Positions 41,079-58,417 of a stretch of 64,000 nucleotides of DNA are shown in pieces; within the stretch, counting starts at the first letter, position 1, and each line of letters opens with the position of its first letter. Source of the stretch: Phycisphaerae bacterium (lineage in GTDB: Bacteria > Planctomycetota > Phycisphaerae > UBA1845). Under the pieces are notes generated by a model. It made no database searches. It was given only the letters and a program-made list of their open reading frames with translations, and had not been told where the DNA came from. The position numbers were made by a program, and so were the translations under genes. The DNA lies in assembly GCA_046753625.1 (NCBI GenBank), contig JBHHUB010000001.1:4377-68376 (forward strand), in the 5' to 3' direction.

Positions 41079-41627
41079 CTATTGGGGCGGCATTTCCGGC
41101 TCGAGGTCGACACCGAGGCCGTCCGCGATGCGGTTGATGTAGTTGAAATAGGCCACGGTCTGTGTGGCGTCGTGAATGGCGCGATCGGAAAGCCCCAGGT
41201 TTCGCAGGTCGGAGACATCCTCGGAGGACATTTGGCCGGGCGTTTTGGTCAGCTTCAAAGCGAACGCGCACAGCGCGCGGTCAACGCTCGACAGCTCCGC
41301 TTCATTGAAATCCGCTACGATCTGATCGACCCATTCGTTGTTGTCAACCTCAACCCGGAGGTTGTCCGCGTGGGCATGGGTTCAGTAGTGACATTCGTTG
41401 GCACGAGACACCACGACAGCCATCATCTCCCGTTGCGCGCGGGTCAGCGGAGAATCGCCGTGCATGACCGCCATGTAGAGGCCCATGCCCGCTTGGAGCA
41501 CGGGTGGGTTCTGGCTTTGAACGCGGACGATGTTGAACACGCGCCCGGCCCGCTTCACACCGGCGGCGTACACCCGGGCCAACTGCCCTTCGGCCTGATC
41601 CTCCGCTATCTGTTCAATCCATGCCAT
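41079..41627 (-). CDS. AhpD/carboxymuconolactone-decarboxylase-family 'peroxidase-related' protein with in-frame UGA (probable selenocysteine, C-H-Y-U)
   Basis: The track ORF 41382..41627 stops at TGA right after ...SRANECHY. The same frame stays open for 100 more codons to TAG 41079..41081. Those codons complete the domain (..SVDRALCAFALKLTKTP..LSDRAIHDATQTVAYFNYINRIADGLGV). The TGA occupies the position of the second Cys of the family CxxC motif. Confidence 0.7.
41329..41381 (-). promoter_or_regulatory. candidate bacterial SECIS element
   Basis: It starts directly 3' of the UGA. A lower stem ACCCAU/AUGGGU encloses an apical 7-bp stem CAACCUC/GAGGUUG (41364..41345). The apical loop is CGGGUU, 26-30 nt after the UGA. 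Confidence 0.5.
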
Positions 41628-41757: not shown

Positions 41758-42846
41758 TCAATTCAGCACCCTCACGGTGGAATGAGTTTCTACTAAATAG
41801 GCGTACAGTTGCGCCACGTCGTCATTGTACATGCGGATGCAGCCCAACGATACGCTGTGTCCGATGCTGTTGGGCTCGATCGTCCCGTGGATGCCGTACC
41901 GCTGAGCGCCGAGGGCATCTCCATCCGCACCGATCAGGGCGATCCAGCGCTCGCCGAGTGGGTTGGCCGGATCGTCCGCGGCGATCATCTGACCACCACG
42001 CGGCGGGTAATAAGTGGGGTTCCTGAGTTTGGTGCCCACACGCCATGTCCCCGTGGGGGTGCCGTCATCGGCTCCCAGGCCGACCTTGAAGTGCGTGACG
42101 AAGGTATCGCCCAGATAGACGTCCAAGACGTATTCGTGCTTGTGCACGACGGCTCGGAACGGTCCATAGATGACTTTGATTACCTGCCCCGCGCGAATGA
42201 GATTGATGTTTTCGATGTTGTTGATCGATGCCAGCAGCCCGGCGGATATCTTGTGGGCTTTGGCGATCTCGCCCAGGGTATCGCCCGGCTTGATCGAATA
42301 CCGACCGACGTGCGCATCGCCGGACCAGGTGCGCGGCGAGAGAATCGTGTCGTTGCCGATGCGCGTCAGCGCCGTGCGCAGGCGCGTGCGATCGGGCTCG
42401 CCGATCTCCGCGAGCATGGCTTCACTGTACCGGGCTCGGGCCGTGAGCACGTCGTTTTCGGCCATCGCTTGATCCCCGGCACGAATCAAGGCGGCCAGAC
42501 GATTTCCGTTGGCTTCGCGGCTCGCGGGGGGCTTGGCCGGCGTGCGCTTGGCGCGTTTCGCTGATACAGGCCTTTTAGGGGATCGTGCGGTGGCGGTTTC
42601 GGACCGGTCCGGTACCGTCTGGCGCTTGGCTGCATCCGACGTGGCCCCAGGCATGCCTGCAAGCAGCGGCTTCTGATTGCCCAGCGGACTGGCCGCGAGC
42701 CCTTGAGCGGGATCGGGCGGCGACGCATCCGGCGTCAGCCACCACGCTCCGGCGGCCAGAACCGCAAGGCCCGCAACGATCGGAACAACAGGTAGGCCGC
42801 GCCGCCGGCGAGTCCGACGGGGGCGGTAGGAACGGCGTCTTGCCAT
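41758..42846 (-). CDS. LysM domain-containing L,D-transpeptidase (YkuD family)
   Basis: The LysM unit is YSIKPGDTLGEIAKAHKISAGLLASINNI..AGQVIKV. The catalytic motif is YGIHGT...SVSLGCIRM. The start was set to ATG 42846 (GGAGG upstream; MARRRSYRPRRTRRRRGLPVVPIVAGLAVLAAGAWW). Confidence 0.88.
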   Translation of the reverse strand: MARRRSYRPRRTRRRRGLPVVPIVAGLAVLAAGAWWLTPDASPPDPAQGLAASPLGNQKPLLAGMPGATSDAAKRQTVPDRSETATARSPKRPVSAKRAKRTPAKPPASREANGNRLAALIRAGDQAMAENDVLTARARYSEAMLAEIGEPDRTRLRTALTRIGNDTILSPRTWSGDAHVGRYSIKPGDTLGEIAKAHKISAGLLASINNIENINLIRAGQVIKVIYGPFRAVVHKHEYVLDVYLGDTFVTHFKVGLGADDGTPTGTWRVGTKLRNPTYYPPRGGQMIAADDPANPLGERWIALIGADGDALGAQRYGIHGTIEPNSIGHSVSLGCIRMYNDDVAQLYAYLVETHSTVRVLN

Positions 42847-43251
42847 GGTTTCGCCTCCATGCGCGAAAGTTGATGCGGGGGCCAGCCGCAAAACGGCCTG
42901 ACCATTCGTGGGTACCACACCTGTAATCAAGCTTACGCCCATTTCGCTCGGATGCAAGTGGAATTACCGCGATCGGGAGTGGCCGCGGCACAATCGCGTC
43001 CAAACGCCAAACCTTAGCCGAACACCCGGCAACGCGGTTCCCCGCGCTCGAGCAGTTCTCATTCGACGGCTACCCGCCGCGATTCGATCGGCATCGCTCG
43101 TGAAGAGACAGAATCTCACAGAGCCTAGCGCCGATAGATTCGGACGGTCATGGTAAAAAGAGGCCGTCATCGCGTTCTTGTGGTGGTGCTGCTTGACGGA
43201 ACGCGCCGGTCTGTCTCCAATGCGGATGCGATTTGCGGAGAAACACAGGCG

Positions 43252-43833
43252 ATGGCAAGCTCCAAGATCAATCCCATGGCGCCGCGTTGGGACGTCGAGC
43301 GGACCAGTGGGGTCTGCGCGCAAACCGGGGAAACGATCCATGAGGGGGAGGCTTTCTACTCCGTCTTGTTCGAGGAGGGGGATTCCTTCCGCCGCGCCGA
43401 CTACAGCCTGGCCGCGTGGGACGGACCGCCGGAAGGCGCTTACTGCCATTACAAGACGCGTATGGCCGTCAAAGAGAAACGCAAAAAAACCTTCGTCGAC
43501 AACGAAATGCTGCGCGCGTTTTTTCTGCGGCTCGCGGACGAGCAGGAACCGGCCCGGGTCCGTTTTCGCTTCGTGATCGCGTTGATTCTGATGCGCAAAC
43601 GCATTTTGCGGTATGAACATTCCGTGACCACGGATGGTATTGAAGTCTGGGACATGCATTTGACTAGAGATCCGTCGGTCCACAAGGTTGTCAATCCCCG
43701 TATGTCGGAAGATCAAATCGAGGAGGTCAGCGGCCAACTCTCGGGCATTCTGCACGCGGACATGGGCGAATGGGACATCGAAGATACTTCCGCTGATGGC
43801 ATCGATGACGAAGGATCGCCGGATGAAGCTTGA
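43252..43833 (+). CDS. hypothetical protein with acidic C-terminus
   Basis: ATG 43252 begins MASSKINPMAPRWDVERTSGVCAQTGETIHEGEAFYSVLFEE. The coding-like composition contrasts with the antisense 293-aa shadow ORF. The stop overlaps the next gene's start by 11 nt. Confidence 0.6.
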   Translation: MASSKINPMAPRWDVERTSGVCAQTGETIHEGEAFYSVLFEEGDSFRRADYSLAAWDGPPEGAYCHYKTRMAVKEKRKKTFVDNEMLRAFFLRLADEQEPARVRFRFVIALILMRKRILRYEHSVTTDGIEVWDMHLTRDPSVHKVVNPRMSEDQIEEVSGQLSGILHADMGEWDIEDTSADGIDDEGSPDEA

Positions 43834-44662
43834 GGTCATCCTCAAGCCCGGCGTGCGGGTGGCGCTGTTCGCGGTGGCGATGACGTGCGGAGCGTGTCAG
43901 CCCAAGACCATCGAAGTGGTCCCCGCGCGGGAAACACCGCTCGCGCGGGCGTGCGCGGTGGTCAACGGCAACGTAGCACGCATCGCCGGCACACTGCGCG
44001 CGACCGGTCCGGTGGACGCGCGCGTAGTCGACGCGGACGGCAGAACGCGCACCTTTTCACTCGACGGCACTCTTTTCTACCTGGCGCCGCATTTCGTGCG
44101 GTTTGATTTGAAGAAGCTGGGCGCAACGCAGGTTCGCGTAGGTTCCAATGCGACGCGGTTTTGGTACTACGCCAAGGACACCGACCGCTATGAGTGTGGG
44201 TGGCACGGGCGGCATCGGGTTCGGGGGTGGGATCTTCCCATCATGCCCGAGGAGCTCGTCGAGGCGTTTGGCCTGACGCCGATTCCGACCGGTCTGATCG
44301 TTCCGGGCGAGGTCACGCGATTGCAGCGCATCGAGCGAGACTATCAGCAAGTGCTTTTCCTGCACGAGTCGGCCGGGCGCGGTATTCGGATTGCAAAGGA
44401 ATACTGGCTCGATCGTTATCCACCTCACCTCACGCGGCGGGTCGTGTTCCGCAACGAAATAGGCGGCGTCGACATGCTTTCCAACCTTGGTGACTACAGG
44501 CGGCTCGGTGCCGGCGGACCTTTGTTGCCCCATCGCCTGGATGTGGAGTGGTTCGACCCCCCGCTGAAGTTGCGTTTCAAGGTTCGCCGATGGAAGTCGG
44601 TACCCCAGGTCGTTGAAGATGGGATTCAGTTTCGGACCCCCGGCGAGTGTGCGAATCCATGA
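43823..44662 (+). CDS. lipoprotein, unknown function (LolA/LolB-like size and pattern)
   Basis: ATG 43823 begins MKLEVILKPGVRVALFAVAMTCGAC, a lipobox-like signal. The rest is beta-rich. Confidence 0.6.
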   Translation: MKLEVILKPGVRVALFAVAMTCGACQPKTIEVVPARETPLARACAVVNGNVARIAGTLRATGPVDARVVDADGRTRTFSLDGTLFYLAPHFVRFDLKKLGATQVRVGSNATRFWYYAKDTDRYECGWHGRHRVRGWDLPIMPEELVEAFGLTPIPTGLIVPGEVTRLQRIERDYQQVLFLHESAGRGIRIAKEYWLDRYPPHLTRRVVFRNEIGGVDMLSNLGDYRRLGAGGPLLPHRLDVEWFDPPLKLRFKVRRWKSVPQVVEDGIQFRTPGECANP

Positions 44663-45282
44663 GACGCGGTCGACGCATGCTTTCCCCAAACTACATCGAG
44701 CGGTGGTGGCGGCTTGGCTTGCTCGGATTGTCGCTGTGCGGCACCGGCATCCTTCCTGCGCTGGCCGATCCGCCCGACGAGCTGTTTGGCGTGGCCGGCA
44801 ATCAGCGGATTATCTGGCTGTTTCAGAACATGACGCATGCTGAGAGCAAGCAGACGGCGCTCTTTTTTACCTACCGGCCACTTGATAAAGCCAAGAAGAC
44901 CCGGTTTGCCCCGCGACCATTCGGACCGATCGGCGGTGAGATTGCCGCCATGGCGGTTTCCGGGCGGAAACTGCACATCATTTACAGCGATGGGACGCAT
45001 CAATCTTTGGTTCCGCCGACCGGGCCTTGGAGCATGATCGCCGGATGCAAGCAGGTGCGCGAGCGCAATCTCCCGGATTCGACCGTGCCGATGGCGCTGG
45101 CCGGAGACCTCGGTAGTGAACAGCTCTACGCTTTGATTACGTCGCGCCGCGCCGCCGCCCTGATGCCCTCGGTGGAGCCGGCGGCCGCGGGCACGTCCGG
45201 AAAGGCGGCTCCCGAAGGCGATGGCTTCGTTACGTGCGGACGTAGAGGAGAACGCGCGGGCGCAATCCGCGCTGAGCGTTGA
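44647..45282 (+). CDS. signal-peptide protein, probably the N-terminal part of a disrupted larger gene
   Basis: A signal-like segment is present (WWRLGLLGLSLCGTGILPALA). The motif GRKLHIIYSDGTH is echoed by AGRIHLIYRPD in the next ORF. The reading frame changes near 45215..45225. Confidence 0.45.
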   Translation: MCESMRRGRRMLSPNYIERWWRLGLLGLSLCGTGILPALADPPDELFGVAGNQRIIWLFQNMTHAESKQTALFFTYRPLDKAKKTRFAPRPFGPIGGEIAAMAVSGRKLHIIYSDGTHQSLVPPTGPWSMIAGCKQVRERNLPDSTVPMALAGDLGSEQLYALITSRRAAALMPSVEPAAAGTSGKAAPEGDGFVTCGRRGERAGAIRAER

Positions 45283-46423
45283 TTTGACCGTCGTTCGCTT
45301 CGAACAAGGACGCTGGGTCTTGGATCGTGCTGCTCCGGCCGATTTCAAGTTGCACGGGCGACCCTTGGCGTTTTGGGCGTCGGCAGGGCGAATCCACCTC
45401 ATCTACAGGCCGGACCGGCAAGCCAACGAGTGGCTCTACCGGGTTAGTGCGGCATCTGACGATTCCTGGTCCGAGTCCGTGGTCTGGCCCGCCACGAGGG
45501 ATCCTGAGTTCGCGTCCGGGTCGGTGGCGCAAGATCAACCCGTGCTTCTGGTCGGTAGGCAATCGGGTGGGGATCCGTTCTTGCAATACTGGCGGCTCGA
45601 CGTCGCCGGCTGGGAACCGGTGGCGCTGGCCGGGAGCGAATTCGCACGCGTTGCGTTGTTCGGGAGCAGGTTTTGCGCCTACGCTGCCGGCACCTATATC
45701 GGGTTGGCACGCCGCGAAAAGGGGGAACCGCTTCATTTTGGACGCTGGGACGTGGCGGACGGGTCGACCTTGGATCCGCTTGCCGTAGTCCCCGCGCTGG
45801 TTCCGCCCGAACCGCCGACGGTCACCACCGCTGCCAAGCATCTGTTGGAGTACACGGTGTTGGGCTTGGCGTTGGCTGCGGTGTTCATCTGGCGGCGCAG
45901 CAGCATTGCGCACCATCCGACGCTGGCGCCCAATCAGAGGCTCGCCCGCCTGTCGCGCCGGGCCATGGCGTTCAGCATCGACATGCTCATTCTCACACCG
46001 GCGGTGATCGCGGTTTTCTACCGCCTCCTGTTGCTCGAAGAGGCCGCGTTTCCGATCTGGAACTCCGGCGGTGTATCCAGCGACCTTTCCGGTCGCTAGT
46101 GGTTTCGAGCTCTAGTGGGCGTTTGCGTGGGAATTTACGGCGCGATTTTCGAGGCGGCTATGAGTGCTACGCCCGGCAAGCGGGCGTTGCGATTGACCGT
46201 GGTTCGCGCGGATGGGAGGCCGATCGCGTTCGGCGGCGCCCTGGTCCGCAATCTCGCCCGGGCCGTTGAGTTTCATTTTGTTCCGTTGGTCCTGCTCGTC
46301 GCGGTCACCTTCGGCAAGCAGCGTCTGGGGGATTTGCTCGCCCGGTCCTACGTAGTGGAGCCGACCGAGACCACTCTCTTGTCGTTGGACATGAATTCCG
46401 ACGACGATTCCGACTTCGACTGA
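45221..46423 (+). pseudogene. RDD-family membrane protein gene interrupted by in-frame TAG (46097..46099)
   Basis: ORFs 45221..46099 and 46115..46423 are in the same frame. The RDD domain spans the stop: RLARLSRRAMAFSIDMLILTPAVIAVFY...SGR-TAG-WFRALVGVCVGIYGAIFEAAMSATPGKRALRLTVVRADGRPI... Confidence 0.5.
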
Positions 46424-46696
46424 AGCCGTTGCCTGTTACAAATTCGCGCCGGGACAGGCGGCTTGGGATACCGCGGGAAGCGGCGTGTTCGTGGCAGATC
46501 CCCCTGTTTTTGAGGGCGACTGGGCGGGTGTCGCACCGATCCGGGCCGCGGGCCATCTTTGACCGATAACTTAAGGGTTGCTTGGCTTGTGCCGATGACC
46601 CAACTGGATGATGGGGCGCGCGGATTGCCATCGGAGGCTCAGCGCCAAGGCGGCCGGCGATAGGATGCTCGCTTTTTGGCAACAGGTACTCACGCG

Positions 46697-49600
46697 ATGT
46701 ACACAAAGTTTTTTAGGCTATCTCGGCGTCCGTTTGAAGAACGGGCGGACCCCCAGTTTTACTTTCCGACGCCGCACGGCGATGAGGTGTTGGCGGCTCT
46801 GGAGTACGAATCCCAGTACGGCCAATCCATCGCGCTTTTGATCGGCGAAGCAGGGACGGGAAAGACCCTGCTCATTCGCTCGTTGCTGATGCGCGGGCAG
46901 CCGACCGACCAGAGCGTCGTGCTGACGTGGACGGCAGACGGGAAGGCGAGCGTGATCCGGGAGGCGTGCAAGGCGTTCGGCGTCACGCTGCCTTCGGCGT
47001 TCAGTACCAATCGCGGACTGGCCAGAATCCGCCGGCATCTCAGCCGCATCACGGCCGATGGGCGGCGCGCACTGCTGGTGATTGACCAGGGGGAGAACCT
47101 CTCGAGCGAGAATCTTGCGGAGATCAGCGCGCTGACCTCGCTGCATTTGGGCGACCAGTCTATGCTGACGGTCATGCTCGCCGGTCAGCCGCAGATCAAA
47201 ACGCTGTTGGAGGCAACGGAGCTTTCGAGTCTGCGGCAGCGGCTCTTCGGTGAGCGCGTGCTTACGCCGTTCTCACGATCGGAGACGGGAAACTACATCG
47301 CCCATCGGTTGAAAGTGGCCGGTGCCGCCGACCCCAACTTGTTCGAACCGCCTGCCTTGGATTTGATTCATCGTGTCTCCGGCGGCATTCCACGTTTGCT
47401 CAATCGCCTCGCGGGCGAGGCGATGCTCAGCGCGTATGGGGCGTCGCGAAAAACGGTGACCGGGCCGGTGGTTGCTGAACTGGTCAAAGAGAACGCTTAC
47501 GAAGAGCCGGCGCCGATGGGGGCTTGCAAGATGGATGCCGACGGCAGCGGCGTGGATAGCGCCGTGGCTTCGGATGCGGAGTTCAGCGGCGACGTGGTGA
47601 GCCGAGCATCCACGTCTCGCGATCGACTGGTGTTCGACGATGCGTCGCCGATCAAATCATATGAGTCGGAAACGGATCGCTTAGCTGGTGCGGAATACGA
47701 CGCCGGATCGTCGACGCTTCCGGATCCGAATGGAAGTGCCGTATTTACGACACTTGATCCTTGTGGAAGTAGTGGGCAGGGGGAGGAGATGCTGGAGCGG
47801 GGGCGTTTGCTGCTGGAACAGTTGGAGCGCGCGATGGCTCGTGCGGAGCGGATGAGCGCTACGTCGCAGGCGTCGCTGACGCAGACTACGGCTGTCGAGA
47901 CGCATCTCGAAACGCTTGTCGGTCATGCGGAGCGAATCGCCGGTGAGCTGGGCGGGTCGGTGAGCCGCGCCCATGAGTCACTGAATTCCTTGAACGCCCG
48001 CATCCGTTCGGAGGTTTCGACGACGCAGGACCGGGTGACGGCGGTCGAGGAACGGCTCGCCGCCATTCCGGAGGTGCTCGAGCAGGCGGACCACAGGCTG
48101 GATCGATTGCAGGATGCCTGCAGCAGTGCGGAACATGTGGAGTCCTCTTTGCGCAAGTTTGGGGAGGAGCTTGCCGATCAGGCGGACACGGTGCAGGAGC
48201 GGATCGGCATCGCCGTGGCCGGTACGCAAGCGGGGAAGGAGACCCTCGACCGGGCCACGCAACTGATCGAGACGGTAGAGCGTGAGAAAGCCTCGCAGGA
48301 ACAATTGATCCGGCGGACGGCGGAGCAGGTGGACACCAAGCTGCGCACGTTGAACCAATCCCTGGCGAAGGCGGATCGAGTTATCGAGTCGCTGCAGACC
48401 CAAAGCCGCAACATGACGTCCGAGGCGGAACGGATCAAAGAGGATCTGCTTCGCAAGAGCATCAGCCGGTTCGAGGAATCGCTCCAACAAGCGCTGGATC
48501 GGTTTACCACGGCGCAGCTCGAAGCATTGGATGCCATGGAATCTCGGGAAGTGGAATTGCGATCCCAGGTCCACGCGTTTGAGGAGCGAACGGCCGGGTT
48601 GCAGCGCACGCTACATGCCGCGGATCATGAGATCGACGCGACGCAGAAGAAAACGTCGGCGGTCGCTACCGAATGCAAGAAGCTGCTCGCTGAAGTCGCC
48701 ACGAAGGAGCAAAGGATTACGCACATCAGTCGTGATCTGGACAACAGCATCGAGCGAGGAGAAACCCACAAGACGGATGTCCAGCGTGTGACGGGCAAGG
48801 CCGAGGAACTCCGGCGAAGCGTCGCGGCCATCCTCGTCGATGTGGGCGCCGCCCAGGAGCGTGCGGTCGCCGCACGCGCTCAATTCGACGGGTACAAGGA
48901 GATCGTCTCCGAAATCGACCAAGCGGTGCAGCGCGGACAATCCGCGCTCCGCGATGTGGACGAAATCGTATCCCACGTGGACCAACTGCAAGGCAACATC
49001 GCGGCGGTCGCTCACGAGGCGTCGGCCAAGACGGAGGCGTTTCGTTCCGACGTCGATCGGGTGCATCGCGACCTCGCCGTGGTTGCCGAAGATGCGGCGG
49101 TCAAGACGGAGGCATTCCGCCAAGGCGTTCGCAACGTCCAGCAGGGGGCGGACGAGACCATCGCGCGAATTACCCAAGCGGTGGCGCAGGGGTCGGACGC
49201 CATCGCGATTGTTTCTGCGGAGGCGCAGACTAAAGTGACACAGCTTGACTCCCACAACGCCGCCGCCCGCGTCGTGTTGCAGGAGTTGTCCGAGATGAAC
49301 CAAAAGGGGCACAGTCTTCTCGATCAGGCCAAGGCGGTGCTCGAGGACACGGAAGACAAAACCAAGCAAGCTGCGTCGACGATTGAGTCTCTTTGGGGAT
49401 TGGCCGGCGGGGCCGAAGCCCAGACCAAAGCACTGGCGACCAAGCTGCAGGAGTCTGAAAAAGTGGTCACCCAGCTTGCCGGCGAGGTCAAGAGTGCGCA
49501 AGCGGCGCTCTCCAGGCTTGCGGAACAATCGTCGGGCGCCGACGCGCAGTATCAGATTGTCGAAAAGCGCTGCCGCGACGCGAAAAAAATCGCCGATCGG

Positions 49601-50362
49601 CTTGTTTCCATCAGCAAGCTGCTCAAAACGGCCAAGGAAACCGAACAGTCCATCACGGAAATGGTCGACGGAGCACGCCGGGTCGCCGACGATCTGACAA
49701 ACGCGGCCGGGACTTCTGATCAGCTCTTGGAGCAGTTCAGCCGGCAGGGCGAAGGCATCGCGGCGACCATCGGCGAACTGGAAACGCGGGCAGCCAAGAT
49801 CGAATCGACCATCGACCAGGTTACGGAGAAGCCGGCTGAGTTGGTTCGGACCGCCAAAGCGCAGGCCGCGCAGCTCGAACGGGTATGTGCTGCGGTCCGC
49901 AAGGTGTTTGCGTCGCTGTCGAAGACAACCTTGGAAGCCAAGAAGCAGACGGAGGCGTGCGGGAAGATCAACCACAGCGCGGCGCAGCAAATCCGCAACC
50001 TCCGCGTCGAGACCGATCGCTCGTGCAAGACGTTGCGCGAATGGATTGCCGAAGCCATTCGGGTACAAACGCGGCTGGAGCGATCGCTGGACCAGGCTCC
50101 GTCGATCCACCAAACGCATCCGATCGAGGAATTGGCCGAAGTCTCGGATCGCATGACCGTGGGGGACGCGATTCCCGAACCTTTGGCGGGCGGTGAACTG
50201 ACCATGCTGGACGAACCGCAAGGCGCCGCCATACCCGGTTGGGCGGATGGGGTTCCGCCCTCGGAATCCGAACCTGCCGCCTCGGAGCTTGGGGCGCGAA
50301 TCGGCAATCGCGCGGACGAAATATCCAGGCTTCTTGCGGATGCCAAGAATCTGGTTCCCTGA
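46697..50362 (+). CDS. ExeA/GspA-like AAA ATPase domain fused to a ~950-aa coiled-coil region
   Basis: The N-terminus is MYTKFFRLSRRPFEERADPQFYFPT...ALLIGEAGTGKTLL (Walker A)...LLVIDQGENL (Walker B-like)...GGIPRLLNRL. The remainder is E/A/Q/R/L/T-rich heptad-like sequence with internal repeats (KTEAFRSDV / KTEAFRQGV). The start was set to ATG 46697. Confidence 0.85.
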   Translation: MYTKFFRLSRRPFEERADPQFYFPTPHGDEVLAALEYESQYGQSIALLIGEAGTGKTLLIRSLLMRGQPTDQSVVLTWTADGKASVIREACKAFGVTLPSAFSTNRGLARIRRHLSRITADGRRALLVIDQGENLSSENLAEISALTSLHLGDQSMLTVMLAGQPQIKTLLEATELSSLRQRLFGERVLTPFSRSETGNYIAHRLKVAGAADPNLFEPPALDLIHRVSGGIPRLLNRLAGEAMLSAYGASRKTVTGPVVAELVKENAYEEPAPMGACKMDADGSGVDSAVASDAEFSGDVVSRASTSRDRLVFDDASPIKSYESETDRLAGAEYDAGSSTLPDPNGSAVFTTLDPCGSSGQGEEMLERGRLLLEQLERAMARAERMSATSQASLTQTTAVETHLETLVGHAERIAGELGGSVSRAHESLNSLNARIRSEVSTTQDRVTAVEERLAAIPEVLEQADHRLDRLQDACSSAEHVESSLRKFGEELADQADTVQERIGIAVAGTQAGKETLDRATQLIETVEREKASQEQLIRRTAEQVDTKLRTLNQSLAKADRVIESLQTQSRNMTSEAERIKEDLLRKSISRFEESLQQALDRFTTAQLEALDAMESREVELRSQVHAFEERTAGLQRTLHAADHEIDATQKKTSAVATECKKLLAEVATKEQRITHISRDLDNSIERGETHKTDVQRVTGKAEELRRSVAAILVDVGAAQERAVAARAQFDGYKEIVSEIDQAVQRGQSALRDVDEIVSHVDQLQGNIAAVAHEASAKTEAFRSDVDRVHRDLAVVAEDAAVKTEAFRQGVRNVQQGADETIARITQAVAQGSDAIAIVSAEAQTKVTQLDSHNAAARVVLQELSEMNQKGHSLLDQAKAVLEDTEDKTKQAASTIESLWGLAGGAEAQTKALATKLQESEKVVTQLAGEVKSAQAALSRLAEQSSGADAQYQIVEKRCRDAKKIADRLVSISKLLKTAKETEQSITEMVDGARRVADDLTNAAGTSDQLLEQFSRQGEGIAATIGELETRAAKIESTIDQVTEKPAELVRTAKAQAAQLERVCAAVRKVFASLSKTTLEAKKQTEACGKINHSAAQQIRNLRVETDRSCKTLREWIAEAIRVQTRLERSLDQAPSIHQTHPIEELAEVSDRMTVGDAIPEPLAGGELTMLDEPQGAAIPGWADGVPPSESEPAASELGARIGNRADEISRLLADAKNLVP

Positions 50363-50522: not shown

Positions 50523-51590
50523 CTAGGAAAGGGGTTTCTCGGCGCCGGTCAGTTTGCGCAGCTCGGCTACTTCCTTCTCAAGTGCCTTGATTCTCTTGAA
50601 CCATTGCGGAAGCTTGCGCATCGCGGTGTGGGAACGGTGCGCCTCGGTAATCGGCACAGCCGGTGATCCGAAATAAGTCTTCCCGCCCTCCAGATCGCCG
50701 ACCACCCCTGCTTGTGCGGCGACGACGGCATGATCGCCGATGGTCTGGTGGCCCGCCAAGCCTACCTGTCCGGCCAGCGTTACGTGGCGCCCCACGTTGA
50801 CCGATCCTGCGAGCCCAACCTGGCCAACGAACAGGCAGTGCTCGCCGATCTTGCAGCCGTGTCCGATGGTCACATTGTCGCTGAATTTGGTGCCGGAGTG
50901 GACTTCGGTACTGCCCAATGTGGCGCGATCGATGGAGCAATTGGCCCCGATTTCGACGTCGTCGCCGAGCACGGCATTGCCGATCTGGGGGATTTTGACC
51001 CACTTCCCTTCATGCGGTGCGAACCCCAAGCCGTCCTGACCGATGACCGAGCCTGCATGAATCGTACATCGGTCGCCGAGCACGCACCCATCGTAGATGA
51101 CGACGTTGGGGAACAGGGTACAGTCATGGCCTATGCGCGCGTCCTTGGCGATGTAGCAACCCGGATAAATCGTGCAGTTGTCCCCGAGGACGGCGCCTTC
51201 GGCGATGGTGGCCCCGGCCGCAATATTGAGATGGCTGCCGATTTGGGCGGTTTCGTGGATGTTCGCCCGGTCGGAAACGCCCCACTGAGGGTGCCGGCGA
51301 TAGCCATATAGGGCAATAATCGCCACCGCCAGAGCCGCGTAGGGATCATCAATGCGGATCGCGGATTTGCCCGGTGGGATCGAGACGCCGTCCTTGCAAA
51401 TGATGGCGGACGCATCGGTTTCGGCGACGGCCTTGAGGTATTTTTCATTGGATAGAAACGAAAGCTCGCCGGCGGATGCGGATTCGAGCGTGTTGATGGC
51501 CTTTATGGGCAGATCTTCGCCCTCCAAGGAGGCACGAAACCCGTGTTGATCGAGAATCTCGCAAAGCTGGCTCAAGCGATAACTGTTCAT
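50523..51590 (-). CDS. lpxD: UDP-3-O-(3-hydroxyacyl)glucosamine N-acyltransferase
   Basis: The LpxD N-terminal domain (SFLSNEKYLKAV) and long hexapeptide-repeat beta-helix are present. The start was set to ATG 51590 (MNSYRLSQL). Confidence 0.9.
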   Translation of the reverse strand: MNSYRLSQLCEILDQHGFRASLEGEDLPIKAINTLESASAGELSFLSNEKYLKAVAETDASAIICKDGVSIPPGKSAIRIDDPYAALAVAIIALYGYRRHPQWGVSDRANIHETAQIGSHLNIAAGATIAEGAVLGDNCTIYPGCYIAKDARIGHDCTLFPNVVIYDGCVLGDRCTIHAGSVIGQDGLGFAPHEGKWVKIPQIGNAVLGDDVEIGANCSIDRATLGSTEVHSGTKFSDNVTIGHGCKIGEHCLFVGQVGLAGSVNVGRHVTLAGQVGLAGHQTIGDHAVVAAQAGVVGDLEGGKTYFGSPAVPITEAHRSHTAMRKLPQWFKRIKALEKEVAELRKLTGAEKPLS

Positions 51591-52076
51591 TCTTGGCGTC
51601 GAATCCTTACCGAAGCTCTCCAAAACATCCATTCTCAGCGTGGATTCGTGGAGTGTCAATGAAAAGCGCGCGGTTTGACGGGCACCCCGACCACCGGTCG
51701 TCCAACCCGCGTCGCGCGTTCCGCCTGGCGTCGGTCGGTGCGGAGCGTCCCTTGCGATCCTCGGCCTATCTCCAGTTCCTGCTCATGTTTGGGTGCCCTG
51801 GTTCTCCTGTGGCCGACATACCGCCCCGAATTCACGTTAAAGGGGGCGGATGTCTCTGGAATTTGTGAACTTGTGCATTAGACTACCGCGTCCGGAACGG
51901 TCTGTGGGCGGACGACTCCGGACGCTGGTGGGAATAATCCGGGCCGTGATCGAATATGGATTCCAGGGATCCAGTCCCTCGGACGACTGCCGGCCTTGAT
52001 CTGTCGTTGGGTTGGGCTTATTTCAGGGCTATGCGGGCGGCCCGGCGCGTTGGCTCCAGTTGGATTCGAGTTAATT

Positions 52077-53636
52077 ATGCCGTTAAGTTCGATGTTGCTG
52101 TGGGTCGTCTTCGCGGTATTTGTCGTTGCGACCCTGGCGCTGGCCGTGTACGGGTTGCACCTGTACGTCTTGCTGGTGCTGTTTCGCAGGCAGTCCAAGC
52201 ACCATCGTGTCCGACAAGGGTTCACGATTCTTCAGTATGCCCGGAATACGGACGATGCCGCTTGGCCTCGGGTAACGAGCCAGATTCCTGTTTTCAACGA
52301 AGCCGATGTCGCCGTCCGCGTGATCGAGGCCGTTGCAGCGATCCAGTACCCCGCGGGCAAGCATGAGATCCAAGTTCTCGACGACAGCACGGACCACACG
52401 CGGGACATCATCGATCAAGTGGCAGCTCGACTCGTCGCGCGCGGGGTGGACGCCAAGGTCATCCGCCGGGCGGACCGGACCGGTTACAAGGCCGGGGCGC
52501 TGTCGCATGGATTGGCCACGGCGACCGGCAAGTATGTGGCGATTTTTGATGCGGACTTCGTTCCGCCCGCGTCGTTTTTGCGGAAGGCTGTGCCGCTATT
52601 GGAGTCGGATTCCAAGATGGCGTGCCTTCAGGGTCGTTGGACCCACCTCAATCGCTTTGAATCATGGTTGACCTCGGCACAGGCGCTGGGCATCGACGGT
52701 CATTTTGCGATCGAGCAGGGAGCCCGCGCGTGGAACGGCCTCATGATGAATTTCAACGGGACGGCGGGCGTGTGGCGCAAGGCCGCGATCGACGATCCGG
52801 CCGTGGGCGGGTGGAGCGGGGATACGCTTACGGAAGACCTGGATTTGTCCTACCGGGCGCAGTTGGCGGGCTGGCGTTTGGAGTACAGCCTTGACCTGCC
52901 TTGTCCCGCCGAGCTACCCGGGACGGTGGCGGCGCTTAAGAGTCAACAACGGCGTTGGGCGACCGGATCGATCCAAGTGGCGCGCAAGCTGCTGCCGCGG
53001 ATTTGGAAGGCGCCGATTTCCTGGGAGGAAAAGATTGAGGCGACGTTACACCTGACGCACTATTCGGTTGCGCTGTGGATGTTGATTCTGGCGCTGGTTG
53101 CTCGCCCGATGCTGCTGATCTTCGCCGACGCGCGACTCTTTACGGGATGGGCTTGGGCGATTTGGGGGGTTATTCTTCTTTCCGCGTTCGCGCCGTCGTT
53201 GGTATACGCCTATGCCCGGTACAGCCTGGACGGTCGATGGAGCGGGCTGCGGACCATCCCCTCGATGCTCGTGTTGGGATGCGGCTTGTGTTTGAACAAC
53301 GCCATCGCCGTGCTTCGCGGCTTGCGGCTGCGTGGCGGGGAGTTTGTGCGCACGCCCAAGTCGGGCAGCGCCGGTTTCCAAAGAAAACGATCGAGTTATG
53401 TGACTTCCGCGTGCGGGCTGTGGATCGGCGAGCTGGCGCTAGGCGTATATGCGGCGTTTTCGTTCGTTCTTTGTTTCACCCAATACCATCGGGCGTTCAG
53501 CTTCTTTCTGCTGGTCTACGCGGTGGGGTTCGTGGTGATTGGATGGCTGTCGCGGCCGCGGCGGCTTCGTGACGACGCCAACGAATCGGAATCGATGGAC
53601 GTTCCCACACTCATCGGCGCAGAAGCGTCAACGTAG
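52077..53636 (+). CDS. processive family-2 glycosyltransferase (cellulose/chitin/glucomannan-synthase-like, membrane-integrated)
   Basis: Motifs present are LDDSTD, AIFDADF, TEDLDLSYR and QQRRW. There is one N-terminal and about five C-terminal TM helices. The start was set to ATG 52077. Confidence 0.88.
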   Translation: MPLSSMLLWVVFAVFVVATLALAVYGLHLYVLLVLFRRQSKHHRVRQGFTILQYARNTDDAAWPRVTSQIPVFNEADVAVRVIEAVAAIQYPAGKHEIQVLDDSTDHTRDIIDQVAARLVARGVDAKVIRRADRTGYKAGALSHGLATATGKYVAIFDADFVPPASFLRKAVPLLESDSKMACLQGRWTHLNRFESWLTSAQALGIDGHFAIEQGARAWNGLMMNFNGTAGVWRKAAIDDPAVGGWSGDTLTEDLDLSYRAQLAGWRLEYSLDLPCPAELPGTVAALKSQQRRWATGSIQVARKLLPRIWKAPISWEEKIEATLHLTHYSVALWMLILALVARPMLLIFADARLFTGWAWAIWGVILLSAFAPSLVYAYARYSLDGRWSGLRTIPSMLVLGCGLCLNNAIAVLRGLRLRGGEFVRTPKSGSAGFQRKRSSYVTSACGLWIGELALGVYAAFSFVLCFTQYHRAFSFFLLVYAVGFVVIGWLSRPRRLRDDANESESMDVPTLIGAEAST

Positions 53637-53648
53637 CGGCACCATATT

Positions 53649-55154
53649 GTGATGCGCCAAGGCCCATCGGGCTCGCCTTCCGCGAGTCCTTGTCCGGAGC
53701 CGGTTTGGCTTCGTGTGATTTGCGGCGCGGCTTGGCTGCCGCTTTTCTATTTCGCCTTCCACGTCGCCCGATTGGGGGCGATTGCGAAGGACGTTCGCTC
53801 GTTTCAAATCGCTTACGTTGTCGCATTCCTCGGGTACGCCGGCGTGTTGTGGTTGTGGCTTCGGCGGCCGGCACCTTCGAATCGATCGCGCGCTCGTTGG
53901 CTGATTCCTTGCCTGCTGATCCGGGTGATTCCCCTAGCGGTCGAACCCACTGACGATGCCCATCGGTACTTGTGGGAGGGGCATGTCCAACTGGCGGGCC
54001 ACAATCCGTTTGCCCTGGCTCCTGATAGTGCCATTCTGGAGTCTCTTAGAGATGAGGACTGGGAGCGCATCAACCATCGGGATTACCCGGCGATTTACCC
54101 GCCCCTGGCGCAACTGGAGTTTTGGGCCGCCGCGGCGCTGCATCCTTCGGTGTATACGCTCAAAGTGCTTCACACCATTTGGGATGCGTTGGGTGTGGTT
54201 GTGCTTGCGTCCATCCTTGCCGCCGGGGGCGTCGCGCCGGCGCGTGCGCTGCTTTACGGGGCTTGCCCGCTTGTACTCACGGCGTTTTGCGTGGAGGGGC
54301 ATGTGGACAGCCTGATGATTCTGCTGCTGTTGCTTTGCTGGCGGTGGGATCAGCGCGGTCATCGCATGGCCGCGGGGATCGCGTTGGGCGGAAGCATTGC
54401 GGCCAAACTGTTTCCCGTCGTCTTCTTGCCGTGGTTCTTTTTTCGATCCAAGCGCGTGCTTTGCGCGGCCCTTGTGACCGTTGCGATCTTATACCTGCCG
54501 TATTGCAGCGCCGGTAGTTCGCTGTTCGGGAGCCTTGGTCGGTTCTCATCAACAGATTCGTTCTTCAGCTTTCTAGGTACGATGTTGGAACTGGACTTTT
54601 CGAATCCGGCCGTACGTCTTGGTCTTGCGGTTTCGCTTGCGGTGGTGCTGACGGCGCTGGCGGTAGGGGGGGCGCGTGGGTCGGCTCGCACGGGCGATGC
54701 ACCGGCAACGGTGGGGGAGGGGGCTGACGTTCGAAGGCGGCTCGGGCTGAAGCTCGTGGCTGGTAGGGGGCGCCGCGCGTGGCGGGCGTATGTGTGGCCA
54801 AGGGGGGACCGGACGGACGGCCTGGATTTCGGTCGATACGGCGTTGCTGCGACGGGCTTGCTTGTCTTGACAATCCCTGTCGTGCATTACTGGTACTTTG
54901 CGTTGCCGATGGTGTTTCTGGCTGTCCGTTGGCACCTGGCGTGGATGATGGCCGCGCTCCTGATCGTCGTCTATTTTGGCGCACAAGAGGCACAGGTGGC
55001 AACCGGAACGTGGGCGATGCCCGTTGATGCGCCGCTCTGGGTGTGGCGAGGCTTTGTCGCGGCCTGGGTTGCTCAAGTATGGCTTGATTACAGGTGCATT
55101 CGGCCTGCGCCGCTCACCGAGAACGGGGGCGCGAATCAGAGTCCACCGCGCTAG
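53649..55154 (+). CDS. GT-C-type polyprenyl-phosphate-sugar-dependent glycosyltransferase (DUF2029/PIG-M-like)
   Basis: About 12 TM helices. The first loop reads PTDDAHRYLWEGHVQLAGHNPFA...NHRDYPAIYPPLAQLEF. The last ~8 codons and the stop lie inside repeat copy C. Confidence 0.7.
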   Translation: MMRQGPSGSPSASPCPEPVWLRVICGAAWLPLFYFAFHVARLGAIAKDVRSFQIAYVVAFLGYAGVLWLWLRRPAPSNRSRARWLIPCLLIRVIPLAVEPTDDAHRYLWEGHVQLAGHNPFALAPDSAILESLRDEDWERINHRDYPAIYPPLAQLEFWAAAALHPSVYTLKVLHTIWDALGVVVLASILAAGGVAPARALLYGACPLVLTAFCVEGHVDSLMILLLLLCWRWDQRGHRMAAGIALGGSIAAKLFPVVFLPWFFFRSKRVLCAALVTVAILYLPYCSAGSSLFGSLGRFSSTDSFFSFLGTMLELDFSNPAVRLGLAVSLAVVLTALAVGGARGSARTGDAPATVGEGADVRRRLGLKLVAGRGRRAWRAYVWPRGDRTDGLDFGRYGVAATGLLVLTIPVVHYWYFALPMVFLAVRWHLAWMMAALLIVVYFGAQEAQVATGTWAMPVDAPLWVWRGFVAAWVAQVWLDYRCIRPAPLTENGGANQSPPR

Positions 55155-55229
55155 CGGTGGGACCAGTCCGCGGGCTGTCGCCCGCGGATCTGATCCGTAA
55201 CCAAGCCGAAAGTCTAGGTGTGTCCAATC
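55130..55229 (-). repeat. ~100-nt structured repeat, copy C
   Basis: The reverse complement aligns to copy A along its length. The central hairpin is perfect here (TCCGCGGGC-gaca-GCCCGCGGA). The outer stem has AG->GA swaps that keep A-U/G.U pairing. Confidence 0.8.
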
Positions 55230-55230
55230 A

Positions 55231-56382
55231 CTAGGGTTGGGCGGCCATCTTGGCTTCGCGATCTTCCTGGGAGCCGCCGGGCGTGTCGAATGTTTTCTTG
55301 AACACGGGGGGGCCGACGGGGGACGCCTGGGCGATGGTAAAGTATCCGTCGTCTCGAATTTTGCCGCTGATGATCGCCAGGTCCGCCAGAACCAGATTGA
55401 GCCGATCCATGGCCAAAACGGCCGATTCATAGAGTCGCTCGTCCTTGGCGATCAGTCCCGCGGTTCCCTTCCCTTGTTCGATGTCGTTGATCAGATGGAC
55501 CAGGCCGGTTGCGGCCTGTCCGACCTGAGCCAGAAACTGATCGAGGAGCTCGAATGATCCATCGAGTTTGGATTCGGTGCGATCGATTGCGCCGGTGGCG
55601 GTGTCGGCCAGCTTGGCGGATTGCCGTTTCCAGAGTTCGACCGTCTCTTTCAGCGTCGCGCTGGCATCCTTCAAGTCCCGGACAACGCCCTTGACGTCCG
55701 ATTGGACTTCCACGTCGCCGAGAACCGCGTTGAGGTTGGCGACGAGCTGGTCCATCCGCTCGACGACGGTGGAAATGTTGGCCATGGGCGGGGGCTCGCC
55801 CAGCGCGGGATGATCCACGTCGGCTACGCTTCTCTGTTTGATCAGTTCATCGAGGCTTGCGGCCACCGGCTCGGCGGCGACGGCGAGGTTACCGATGCCA
55901 TCGAGCGTTCTTTGGAAGGATTGTACCATCGATGGCGTAATGATTTCATTGAGCATGCTCGCCATTTCGCCGCGCATCGTGGCCTTTTCGCGCGGCATCA
56001 AGGCGGAGGTGACGTTCTCCTCGACGACGATGTTGATCTGTCCGGTTCCGATGCCCAGCGTTGCGCCGTAGACTTTGGCGTAGGCGCCCATGGGTACGGA
56101 AAACTCCCGACTGATCAGAGTGCGGATGACGACACCTTTTTCGGGGGCTGTGCGGTCCTGAAAATCCAGGCCGGAAACCCGTCCGATTTCAACGCCGTTG
56201 AGTTTGACCGGGGTTCCTTCGGCGACGCCGCGCAGATCACGCACGCCGACAATGCTGAGCTCCCAATCGGTCGTGCGCAGCCATGTCGGGGCTTCGCCGA
56301 ACCACACCATCAACACGCCGAGCGCGCCTATGGACGCGACGACGAAAACACCGACCAACAAGTCTCGCGATTTTTCTTTCAT
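55231..56382 (-). CDS. mlaD: MCE/MlaD-family protein with long C-terminal helical region
   Basis: An N-terminal TM is present (LLVGVFVVASIGALGVLMVWF). The Mce domain reads GVAEGTPVKLNGVEIGRVSGLDF. Confidence 0.8.
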   Translation of the reverse strand: MKEKSRDLLVGVFVVASIGALGVLMVWFGEAPTWLRTTDWELSIVGVRDLRGVAEGTPVKLNGVEIGRVSGLDFQDRTAPEKGVVIRTLISREFSVPMGAYAKVYGATLGIGTGQINIVVEENVTSALMPREKATMRGEMASMLNEIITPSMVQSFQRTLDGIGNLAVAAEPVAASLDELIKQRSVADVDHPALGEPPPMANISTVVERMDQLVANLNAVLGDVEVQSDVKGVVRDLKDASATLKETVELWKRQSAKLADTATGAIDRTESKLDGSFELLDQFLAQVGQAATGLVHLINDIEQGKGTAGLIAKDERLYESAVLAMDRLNLVLADLAIISGKIRDDGYFTIAQASPVGPPVFKKTFDTPGGSQEDREAKMAAQP

Positions 56383-57182
56383 AATCGGGTCTGCTCGTGA
56401 ATTTCTCTAAGCACTTCTTCGCCGCATCGGCCTTCCACGAAGTTGCGCACGCGCATGTCATCGCATTCCATGACGGACTTGGCTTCGCCGTCGAAAATAA
56501 ACCTTCCCTGGTACAACATGACGATGCGGTCCGCCACTTTGTTGGCGCTCGCCATGTCGTGCGTCACCACCACGCTCGTCACCCCGAGCTCACGCTGCAG
56601 CTTGAGGATCAATTCGTTGATTTCATCGGCCCGCGGCGGGTCCAGCCCGGTCGTCGGTTCATCGTAGAGCACCAGCTCAGGATTGACCGCGATGGCTCGC
56701 GCCAACGCGACCCTTTTTTTCTGGCCGCCTGAAAGCTCCGCGGGCCATTTGTCCTGAATGCCATCGAGGCCGACCATCGCCAGCTTTTCCTTCACGACGC
56801 GCGCGATCTCCGCCTTTCGCCGTCCGGTGTGTTCTTGAATGGGGAAGGCGATGTTTTCCGCAACGGTCATCGAATCGAACAGCGCGCTGAGCTGAAAAAG
56901 AAAGCCGAACCGGGGTCGGATTTGAACGAGCTCTCGTTCTGACATCGTATCCAAGCGTATGTCGCGGTAGTACACCGCGCCCTTGTCGGGCTTGAGCAAG
57001 CGGACGATGTGCTTGAGGATCACGCTCTTACCCGAGCCCGATTCTCCGATCACCACGGTGGTCTGCCCCGTCTTGAGTTCCAGATCGATGCCCTTGAGCA
57101 CCTCGAGTTCGCCGAAGCGCTTGTGCACGTCGACGAGTCGAATGATAGGCTGGGTGTTGGGATGGGGCGTAGCCGGCGGCAT
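56379..57182 (-). CDS. mlaF: ABC transporter ATP-binding protein (MlaF-type)
   Basis: Diagnostic segments are GESGSGKSV, LSGGQKKRVALARA and LVLYDEPTTGLD. A 4-nt overlap with mlaD is present. Confidence 0.9.
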   Translation of the reverse strand: MPPATPHPNTQPIIRLVDVHKRFGELEVLKGIDLELKTGQTTVVIGESGSGKSVILKHIVRLLKPDKGAVYYRDIRLDTMSERELVQIRPRFGFLFQLSALFDSMTVAENIAFPIQEHTGRRKAEIARVVKEKLAMVGLDGIQDKWPAELSGGQKKRVALARAIAVNPELVLYDEPTTGLDPPRADEINELILKLQRELGVTSVVVTHDMASANKVADRIVMLYQGRFIFDGEAKSVMECDDMRVRNFVEGRCGEEVLREIHEQTRL

Positions 57183-57200
57183 CGGTGCATTATCCCAAGG

Positions 57201-58010: not shown

Positions 58011-58417
58011 GGTCGATCCACTCACATTCGAGAAACAGATCTTCTGAACAACGCGCGGCAACCCACTGCTATGTATCTAGCCAAGCCGGGCCTGTCAAAC
58101 CGATTTCGCGCCGTTGCCGGGAGTGCCGGGGGGGCCGGCGATTGCGGCACGGAGCGGGATGCATCGGGCAGATGACGCGTCGTTCTTGCTTTCCTGCAGC
58201 CTGAAAGACTGCCCTGTGTTGGCGCGGGTCCGCAGCACGCGGACCCGCCGTTGCTGCACAAGCTATTGCGTTCGACCCCGCCGAGGGCGACTCAGCGCTG
58301 CGCCACGCCGATCTCACAAGAAAGCCGACTCGTTTCGGGTTGGCTCGGACGGATGCGGCGCGCTTCCGCGTACCCATCGGCGCCGGTCGCCTTCCGAACT
58401 CCGTTGTTGTCATACCG

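Follow-up and report, generated by a model that had tools for sequence, protein, structure and literature searches.

The cluster described here occupies positions 43,252 to 50,362 of a 64,000-nucleotide stretch of DNA (the window) that originates from a Phycisphaerae metagenome-assembled genome (MAG). It consists of four co-oriented genes, which we name A, B, C and D, and two conserved upstream elements (Table 1). A reading made from the sequence alone (the sequence-only reading) had listed five consecutive plus-strand open reading frames (ORFs) at this site. Their common orientation and their coordinates stand, but they represent four genes, one of which is broken. The overlap that had been reported between the end of A and the beginning of B is present and measures 11 nt. 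Protein D is 100% identical to the NCBI entry 'MAG: AAA family ATPase [Phycisphaerae bacterium]' (P0001), and protein B is identical to the protein of locus tag ACE5E5_00205. The GC content is even (0.60–0.65), no mobility genes were seen, and the window contains no tRNA genes.

Searches of Pfam, NCBIfam, PADLOC and PDB sequences provided no independent functional annotation for any of the four proteins; the RDD match in C and the AAA_22 match in D are domain matches. Every part is either a new family or a known fold in a new architecture, and neither the parts nor their combination are described in the searchable literature.

Table 1 Features of the A–D cluster and its immediate neighbours in the window.
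Feature	Position	Strand	Description
Promoter-like element of the A-B(-C) unit	43193..43221	+	TTGACG-N17-TCCAAT
Gene A	43252..43833	+	193-aa predicted cytoplasmic protein, unannotated family
Gene B	43823..44662	+	279-aa predicted lipoprotein, predicted LolA/LolB-superfamily fold; lipobox Cys25 at 43895-43897
Gene C, disrupted	44659..46423	+	signal peptide, ~355-aa periplasmic domain, transmembrane segment, RDD (predicted layout)
C difference 1	after ~45223		8-bp deletion (GAAGACGC), inactivating
C difference 2	45426		A/G, Asn/Ser
C difference 3	46099		G/T, TAG versus TAT, inactivating
D-specific upstream element	46563..46597	+	CCGATAASTTMA-N17-CCGATG
Gene D	46697..50362	+	1221-aa predicted soluble protein, ExeA-type P-loop and helical rod
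LysM + YkuD L,D-transpeptidase	41758..42957	-	divergent neighbour; Pfam YkuD 1.3e-16, LysM 8e-12
lpxD	50523..51659	-	convergent with D; Pfam LpxD and Hexapep; outside the conserved module

Conservation of the cluster

An alignment of protein A was used to scan one genome per GTDB species, and relatives were found in 317 species. The best 80 of these loci, nearly all of them labelled as Phycisphaerae or Planctomycetota MAGs, were searched with custom profiles; the denominators given for species loci are the loci with enough flanking sequence to judge. A second scan, directed at metagenomes, used as a query a distant clade that is about 35% identical to A of the window, and yielded 80 further loci.

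Genes A and B are adjacent, co-stranded, and overlapping or abutting in 75 of 76 species loci. A B-like gene lies immediately 3' of A in 66 of the 80 distant-clade metagenome loci. The pairing with overlapping stop and start codons holds from 91% down to about 35% identity of A, in unrelated flanking contexts. Gene C directly follows B in 31 of 66 species loci, a C-like gene is present in 13 of the 80 distant-clade loci, and, when present, C always occupies the same position behind B. Gene D is found downstream of A-B in 16 of 52 species loci, which are concentrated among the closest relatives of the window genome. Neither D nor YkuD was found in the 80 distant-clade loci.

Contigs carrying six D homologues (30–56% identity) share the same order of a small protein, a protein of about 270 amino acids (aa), and D. 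Two of the six contain an intact RDD gene of 570–587 aa between B and D, and four have a divergent LysM-YkuD gene upstream. Every D gene examined is positioned downstream of A-B on the same strand, in otherwise unrelated neighbourhoods. In loci L006, L015, L018 and L035, the stretch between B and D contains an insertion of 3–4 kb with other genes. The insert of L006 (4709–7395) includes an N6_N4 DNA methylase gene on the opposite strand. D retains its upstream element and orientation in these four loci. The only clear exception to the A-B pairing that we saw is the distant A locus L091 (8001–12307), in which A is followed by a secreted transglutaminase-core gene and then by a T2SSE-type ATPase gene, with no recognisable B.

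The near-universal A-B pair, the presence of C in roughly every second locus, and the restriction of D to close relatives show that the cluster is layered. Its ancient core is A-B, often joined by C as a third member; D was added late, beside the core, in one Phycisphaerae lineage. The genes are thus syntenic in relatives, but not as the single five-gene operon that had been suggested, since D is restricted to a subclade and A and D carry separate upstream elements. With synteny present and independent annotations lacking, neither of the two outcomes named in the sequence-only reading as refuting it was obtained. The label 'lineage-specific' is apt for D, a family of 22 members found among 5.8 billion proteins; A-B reaches far beyond one lineage.

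Protein B

Protein B was described in the sequence-only reading as a lipoprotein of the size of LolA or LolB, and structure prediction extends the resemblance to the fold. Neither Pfam nor NCBIfam matches B at E<0.1, and a profile search of PDB sequences returned no Lol protein. The AlphaFold2 (AF2) model of B is confident, with a predicted local distance difference test score (pLDDT) of 89.6 and a predicted template modelling score (pTM) of 0.83. A Foldseek search of the PDB with this model gave 50 matches at E<1e-3, nearly all of them to LolA, LolB or 'lipoprotein-sorting' entries. The top structural matches are Porphyromonas gingivalis LolA3 and LolB (9tpm among the best), 3bk5 and 3buu, and the LolA/LolB entries have E values of 3e-9 to 1e-5. 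TM-scores normalised to the target are 0.62–0.65 for LolB entries versus 0.43–0.60 for LolA entries. B is therefore predicted to have a fold of the LolA/LolB superfamily.

The N-terminus of B is hydrophobic and is followed by a [GA]-C motif, in which Cys25 is kept in 38 of 40 aligned homologues. B is thus a predicted lipid-anchored periplasmic lipoprotein. In the same alignment, Cys125 is invariant and Cys276 nearly so. Position 99 is Leu in 22 and Phe in 18 of the 40 sequences, and is followed by an invariant Gly100. According to the secondary structure of the model, these two residues form the tip of the hairpin between the third and fourth strands. The LolB proteins of Escherichia coli and Flavobacterium depend for their function on a hydrophobic residue in the loop that joins strands 3 and 4, which is Leu68 in E. 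coli (PMC11885536). We treat the apparent parallel between Leu/Phe99 of B and this loop as a lead only.

B shares with LolA and with LolB, including the LolB-like proteins of Bacteroidota, a predicted open β half-barrel with an N-terminal helix. With LolB it has further in common a lipoprotein signal peptide and a lipobox cysteine, and the conserved hydrophobic residue that its model places at the tip of an early hairpin may be another shared feature. B differs from both in having no sequence similarity to them, in being about 70–90 residues longer, and in its conserved Cys125-Cys276 pair. Moreover, its gene overlaps that of a putative cytoplasmic protein instead of standing in a lol, hemA or ispE context. 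Only recently have LolB-like proteins been identified beyond the Proteobacteria, namely in Bacteroidota (PMC11885536, PMC13103446). The searchable literature holds no paper on Lol components of Planctomycetes and describes no LolB equivalent in them.

Protein A

Protein A has Cys22 and Cys65 and a tail rich in Asp and Glu, which account for 11 of the last 30 residues, in agreement with its earlier description. The longest ORF for A starts at 43150 and encodes 227 aa, but it encloses the promoter-like element of A itself. The start at 43252 is better for this reason. A is far more conserved than B, C or D, with identities of 51–91% among the homologues listed for Phycisphaerae-type MAGs. It has no match in Pfam, NCBIfam, PADLOC or PDB sequence searches. 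The small zinc-ribbon proteins with an acidic tail of TIGR02300 'FYDLN_acid' are look-alikes of A, but NCBIfam gave no match for A at E<0.1.

In an exhaustive profile search, the family of A amounts to 2013 clusters at 50% identity, of which 1124 reach E<1e-10, and most members are 160–190 aa long. Pfam scans of ten distant members gave nothing useful, and all cluster names read 'hypothetical protein'. A belongs to a new, widespread family with no Pfam, NCBIfam or structural annotation. A CxxC...CxxC motif is kept in 46 of 127 full-length representatives. The clade of the window retains only Cys22 and Cys65, and its putative zinc ribbon therefore appears degenerate.

The AF2 model of A (pLDDT 81, pTM 0.49) predicts a three-stranded N-terminal domain, a basic linker, a C-terminal domain of α-α-β3-α topology, and a disordered acidic tail with pLDDT below 50. 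The weak Foldseek neighbours of A are mostly double-stranded RNA (dsRNA)-binding domains, which we keep as a lead only. No signal peptide or transmembrane (TM) segment was detected in A (maximum KD19 0.95), and the protein is predicted to be cytoplasmic. The tail has a median length of 39 aa with 13 Asp/Glu in loci that contain C, versus 27 aa with 7 Asp/Glu in those without C, in a comparison of loci L008 to L087 that is uncontrolled for phylogeny. There is no such link to the presence of D: the median tail lengths are 28 aa in loci with D and 30 aa in those that lack it.

Protein C and its disrupted allele

In the window, C is divided into three ORFs (44647–45282, 45221–46099 and 46115–46423), which are separated by a frameshift near 45223 and by an in-frame TAG at 46097–46099. 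The start of C had been placed at GTG 44647; the intact gene begins instead at ATG 44659, which overlaps the stop codon of B as ATGA. In the closest relative, locus L001, the D protein of which is 56% identical to that of the window, C is a single intact gene of 587 aa. C of the window aligns to it end to end in two frames, with 69–71% identity and with the TAG opposite a Tyr. An intact C of 590 aa, together with an identical D protein, is present in the Logan assemblies of SRR29324588 and SRR29324589 (L092 and L093), which were assembled independently and represent the same population. The window and these two assemblies are 99.9% identical over 9,390 bp and differ at only three sites, all of which are within C (Table 1). 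With differences distributed randomly over the 9.4 kb, all three would lie in C with a probability of about 0.007. C of the window may be a real loss-of-function allele of the population, or the region may be mis-assembled.

Intact C of L092 matches Pfam RDD with 52.4 bits (cut-off 24.1) over residues 432–564, covering positions 2–136 of the 137-position model. In the window, only the last fragment matches RDD (model positions 56–136 of 137), because the gene is split. The hydrophobic segments of intact C span residues 19–37, 395–413, 437–465, 485–506 and 534–556. They correspond to a signal peptide or anchor (19–37), a TM segment (395–413), and three further segments inside the RDD domain. 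The sequence-only reading had taken C for a signal-peptide repeat protein continuing into an RDD domain. Such a single frame does not exist in the window, and BLAST self-comparison revealed no internal repeats.

The periplasmic domain of about 355 aa has no detectable relatives, including in a PDB sequence search. Compared with members of the RDD family (PF06271; Mas1B, VanZ-RDD and the Halobacillus andaensis RDD protein), which the C-terminal ~135 aa of intact C match end to end, C adds a cleavable signal peptide, this periplasmic domain, and one extra TM segment. One RDD protein has been functionally characterised (PMC5996927), and RDD domains occur in Mce-associated proteins (PMC1810536). 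An intramembrane binding site that faces the cytoplasm and frequent fusions to lipid-related VanZ and to kinase domains have been reported for RDD (PMC12419801). The function of the RDD family is itself unsettled.

Protein D

Protein D begins at the same ATG as NCBI P0001, and all of its homologues start with MY..FF (MYTKFF in the window). The sequence-only reading of D as an ExeA-type AAA protein of 1221 aa with a long helical region holds. The ~950 aa of coiled coil assigned to it are better divided into a disordered linker of about 90 aa and a rod of about 770 aa.

Residues 1–270 (nt 46697–47506) form an ExeA-type P-loop domain that matches Pfam AAA_22 with 1.7e-17. TIGR03015 matches with 6.3e-53 over positions 1–265 of the 269-position model, but the score is 179.9 bits versus a cut-off of 324.5. 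The Walker A motif GEAGTGKT (nt 46844–46867) is conserved. The Walker B motif is DQGE (residues 130–133, nt 47084–47095). All 22 members of the D family have DQ[AGV]E in the columns that contain DEAQ, DEGQ or DEAH in ten canonical relatives (P0023–P0032), as though Glu and Gln had exchanged positions. D contains no TM segment (maximum KD19 1.13, with values of 1.0–1.3 in six homologues) and has no PG_binding, SPOR or OmpA Pfam match, whereas the relatives P0027–P0032 carry SPOR, OmpA or TonB_C. The sequence-only reading had placed the ExeA-type nucleoside triphosphatase (NTPase) of D in an unusual domain context, and these results agree with it.

The linker (residues 275–365) is acidic, rich in Ser and poorly conserved, and is predicted to be disordered. 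The predicted helical rod spans residues 365–1135 (nt 47789–50101) and includes a Pro-free stretch of 587 residues. Conserved blocks are found at residues 351–500 and 1051–1150 and in the last 20 aa. The first end of the rod carries the pattern 'RLERALARAERM..TTEASL.Q.TAVEKHL'. The second end has 'QAAQLERVCAAVRKVF', 'EW.EEA.R.Q.RLE' and 'PSI..THP', and the conserved C-terminal peptide reads 'R.EEI..LI.EAK'. Conserved rod ends fit an antiparallel fold-back, which would place both of them by the head.

The N-terminal ~270 aa of D are the same P-loop domain, with a Walker A motif GxxGxGKT, as in ExeA/GspA, MshM and the XrtA/PEP-CTERM ATPase (TIGR03015). D differs from these proteins in its DQxE motif, the missing TM segment and periplasmic peptidoglycan-binding domain, the sub-cut-off NCBIfam score, and about 950 extra residues that make up the linker and rod. 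Secretin, GspB/ExeB, pilus, and exosortase or exopolysaccharide genes are missing from the Pfam-annotated neighbourhoods of six D homologues. A related MAG (L174, 8001–12203) encodes a 1400-aa ExeA-like paralogue with a DEAQ motif beside Poly_export, AAA_31, FemAB-like and glycosyltransferase genes. Such a Poly_export/glycosyltransferase locus is the usual home of TIGR03015 proteins. This location of a long DEAQ paralogue argues that D is a distinct offshoot. Within this group, long ExeA-type proteins thus have at least two different genomic settings, the D loci and L174.

D also resembles SMC, Rad50 and MukB in combining a nucleotide-binding head with a very long helical rod of which both ends are conserved. 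However, its head is of the ExeA type instead of an ABC domain split between the termini, it lacks a hinge, and its matches to these families are compositional only. The rod scores 57 bits against SMC_prok_B (cut-off 567) and 25 bits against Rad50 (cut-off 1087), and the PADLOC models LmuB and JetC match residues 361–1113 only.

Upstream elements and probable transcription units

The element in front of A occurs once in the window, versus 0.01 occurrences expected by chance. The same pattern was found once in 35 fetched loci, on the plus strand and upstream of A in 34 of them. We read it as a putative sigma-70-like promoter. A generic promoter and terminator scan was uninformative and missed this element because its -10 box is TCCAAT.

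The element in front of D is likewise single in the window. Among the fetched loci, 25 contain a single copy of it; every one of these bears D, and no D-less locus is among them. It lies 108–232 nt 5' of the D start in the 19 unique loci measured. A gap of 160–430 nt precedes D. The element is invariant and bipartite, and is kept among D orthologues whose proteins are only ~30% identical. It stays beside D despite the insertions between B and D described above. Its second box, TCCGATG, resembles the TCCAATG box 5' of A. RNAalifold predicts no base pairs at this site and Rfam gives no match, and a structured RNA or riboswitch upstream of D was therefore rejected. These two results lead us to read the element as a putative promoter or operator acting at the DNA level. 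Since A and D each carry their own conserved upstream element, the cluster probably comprises two transcription units, A-B(-C) and D.

Flanking genes

The genes bordering the cluster in the window are those previously named, a LysM L,D-transpeptidase and lpxD, both recognised by Pfam (Table 1). The lpxD flank is not conserved. The divergent LysM-YkuD gene is a common but not invariable partner: of 65 species loci, 20 have it upstream of A, and most of these belong to closer relatives. lpxD is downstream of D only in L001/L008 and L062, and the other D loci end in unrelated genes. Beyond lpxD, positions 51996–58061 of the window contain the genes of a GT2 glycosyltransferase and of a large membrane protein and, on the minus strand, an operon for lipid transport (MlaD-ABC-MlaE). 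The large membrane protein has no Pfam match in the window, and its L001 counterpart matches GT87/MptA_B. The wider neighbourhood is rich in envelope-lipid genes in this genome and in L001, and the presence of YkuD-LysM, LpxD, MlaDEF and glycosyltransferases counts in favour of an envelope role of the cluster.

On the other side of the LysM-YkuD gene, positions 41079–41627 on the minus strand probably contain a selenoprotein gene that was mis-called as truncated. The annotated CMD fragment of 81 aa ends in ...ANECHY-TGA (TGA at 41382–41384), and the frame remains open for about 100 further codons. Reading the TGA as Cys or selenocysteine gives a product of 182 aa that matches TIGR01926 'peroxidase-related enzyme' over its full length, with 155 bits versus a cut-off of 81.8. 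The read-through product also matches an 'AhpD-related (seleno)protein' model and has the motif CxxU; this motif and these matches are the grounds for the selenoprotein reading. A 7-bp hairpin lies 20 nt after the UGA, and its folding energy is not significant. Similar truncated CMD calls of about 81 aa are present in L001, L002, L005, L006 and L092.

Proposed function of the module

The cluster is real, and a role for it in the cell envelope is what we infer from its parts. The predicted compartments are the cytoplasm for A and D, the periplasm for the lipoprotein B, and the membrane for C, which spans it. We tentatively propose that A-B(-C) is a trans-envelope module that handles or senses lipids or lipoproteins, to which one lineage has added a nucleotide-switched scaffold. 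B would bind acylated cargo, either a lipoprotein or a lipid, in its hydrophobic half-barrel in the manner of LolB or LolA, and would act at or between the membranes. C, which is predicted to sit in the inner membrane and combines an RDD domain with a large periplasmic one, would be the bridge, and A would be a cytoplasmic partner or regulator. The start of B may be translationally coupled to A through the overlap of the two genes. D would bind nucleotide, hydrolyse it slowly, and organise or position the module in the manner of a switchable scaffold. Canonical ExeA combines an ATPase, a membrane span and a wall-binding domain in one polypeptide. In the module, C, B and the LysM-YkuD enzyme encoded next to it would provide the contacts with the membrane and the cell wall in trans. 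The genome variant of the window would run the module without C.

Several points weigh against this proposal. D is missing within 10 kb of A-B in 36 of 52 species loci, which means that the module does not need D. The proposed bridge, C, is lacking in about half of the loci and disrupted in the window. With A and D in the cytoplasm and B in the periplasm, direct contact between A and B would be impossible after export of the latter. B is assigned by its predicted fold only, with no sequence-level link to LolA or LolB, and the LolA fold serves other roles too, as in RseB, LppX/LprG and DUF1329. The parallel at the hairpin tip of B comes from the secondary structure of a model and not from a superposition. 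A has no significant Foldseek match in the PDB (best E = 0.13). Slow hydrolysis by the DQxE motif is suggested by general knowledge of P-loop proteins. The searchable literature contains no paper, experiment or annotation for any of the four proteins.

Alternative interpretations

The cluster could instead signal envelope stress or lipid status, although we consider this unlikely. B would then be a sensor like RseB or MucB that binds the periplasmic domain of C, C would pass the signal across the membrane through its RDD domain, and A, a zinc-ribbon protein with a regulator or nucleic acid as its target, would be the cytoplasmic output. Such an arrangement would parallel RseB/MucB-RseA, in which a periplasmic protein with a LolA fold, a membrane-spanning partner and a cytoplasmic output are combined. 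It is in line with the predicted LolA fold of B, and the literature ties RDD to signalling at the cytoplasmic face and to kinase fusions. A, for its part, appears derived from a zinc ribbon, with an α-β3-α domain whose weak structural neighbours are mostly dsRNA-binding domains, and is much better conserved than B, C and D. However, LolA and LolB dominate the 50 significant Foldseek matches of B, and neither RseB nor MucB is among them; RseB, moreover, is not lipidated. A lacks a TM segment and any known signature of anti-sigma or DNA-binding proteins. In the neighbourhoods examined, no gene for a sigma factor is consistently adjacent, and C is absent from half of the loci.

It is similarly improbable, in our judgement, that D is an independent cytoskeletal or scaffold protein, involved in shape, polarity or division in these FtsZ-less bacteria, which merely sits beside an unrelated A-B-C cluster. 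The long helical rod with an NTPase head would suit this role. D has its own conserved upstream element and a gap of 160–430 nt before it, stays with the element when genes are inserted between B and D, and is missing from A-B loci in most lineages. However, every D gene examined is downstream of A-B on the same strand, even among orthologues that are ~30% identical and stand in unrelated neighbourhoods, and this constant position is hard to explain without a functional tie. A family confined to one subclade, with so few members in so large a protein collection, is also too rare for a general division protein.

Three further interpretations are unlikely to a greater degree. That D is a canonical assembly factor for a secretin, a pilus or exopolysaccharide export, similar to ExeA/GspA, MshM or the PEP-CTERM ATPase, is very doubtful. 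Its best family match is TIGR03015 across the whole ATPase domain, and its nearest relatives outside the D family are of the ExeA/GspA type. Against this stand the score of 180 bits where 324.5 are required, the change from DEAQ to DQxE, and the missing TM segment and peptidoglycan-binding domain. No secretin, GspB, pilus or exosortase gene was found in the D neighbourhoods examined, and the canonical DEAQ paralogue of the related MAG sits instead in the Poly_export/glycosyltransferase locus.

We give equally little credence to the view that the genes are unrelated neighbours, whose clustering would reflect conserved gene order and entail no common function. It would account for the different predicted compartments, the variable presence of C and D, and the two promoter-like elements, but the A-B overlap persists to distant homologues with unrelated flanks, and the position of C is constant.

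Anti-phage defence or SMC-like handling of DNA, as in Lamassu or Wadjet systems, is the least credible interpretation and was rejected: the PADLOC LmuB and JetC and the NCBIfam SMC and Rad50 models do match D, but all such matches are confined to the coiled coil of the rod (residues 360–1136), are compositional and far under the cut-offs, D has no SMC head, hinge or nuclease, A, B and C have no PADLOC match, and the GC content is uniform, with no mobility genes.

Significance for the planctomycete envelope

Planctomycetes are diderm bacteria that have peptidoglycan and no FtsZ. To our knowledge, the biogenesis of their envelope is largely unmapped. In its broadest and rather speculative form, which we think unlikely, our proposal is that A-B(-C) is an unrecognised trans-envelope system common to the whole phylum Planctomycetota. 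The missing LolB-type acceptor or insertase of acylated cargo would then be B; C would couple across the membrane by means of its RDD domain, and A would be a new cytoplasmic partner derived from a zinc ribbon. One Phycisphaerae lineage would have recruited to this system a new class of nucleotide-gated coiled-coil scaffold, with an ExeA head, a DQxE switch and a rod of 60–115 nm.

Even if this functional guess is wrong, the locus provides gene boundaries, two conserved cis elements, and a putative natural loss-of-function allele of C to test. As a conserved lipoprotein with a predicted LolB fold, encoded behind a conserved protein of a new and probably cytoplasmic family, B is a concrete LolB candidate for Planctomycetes. 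D indicates that the ExeA module can lose its attachment to the membrane and the cell wall and become joined to a giant rod; its catalytic motif is altered throughout the family.

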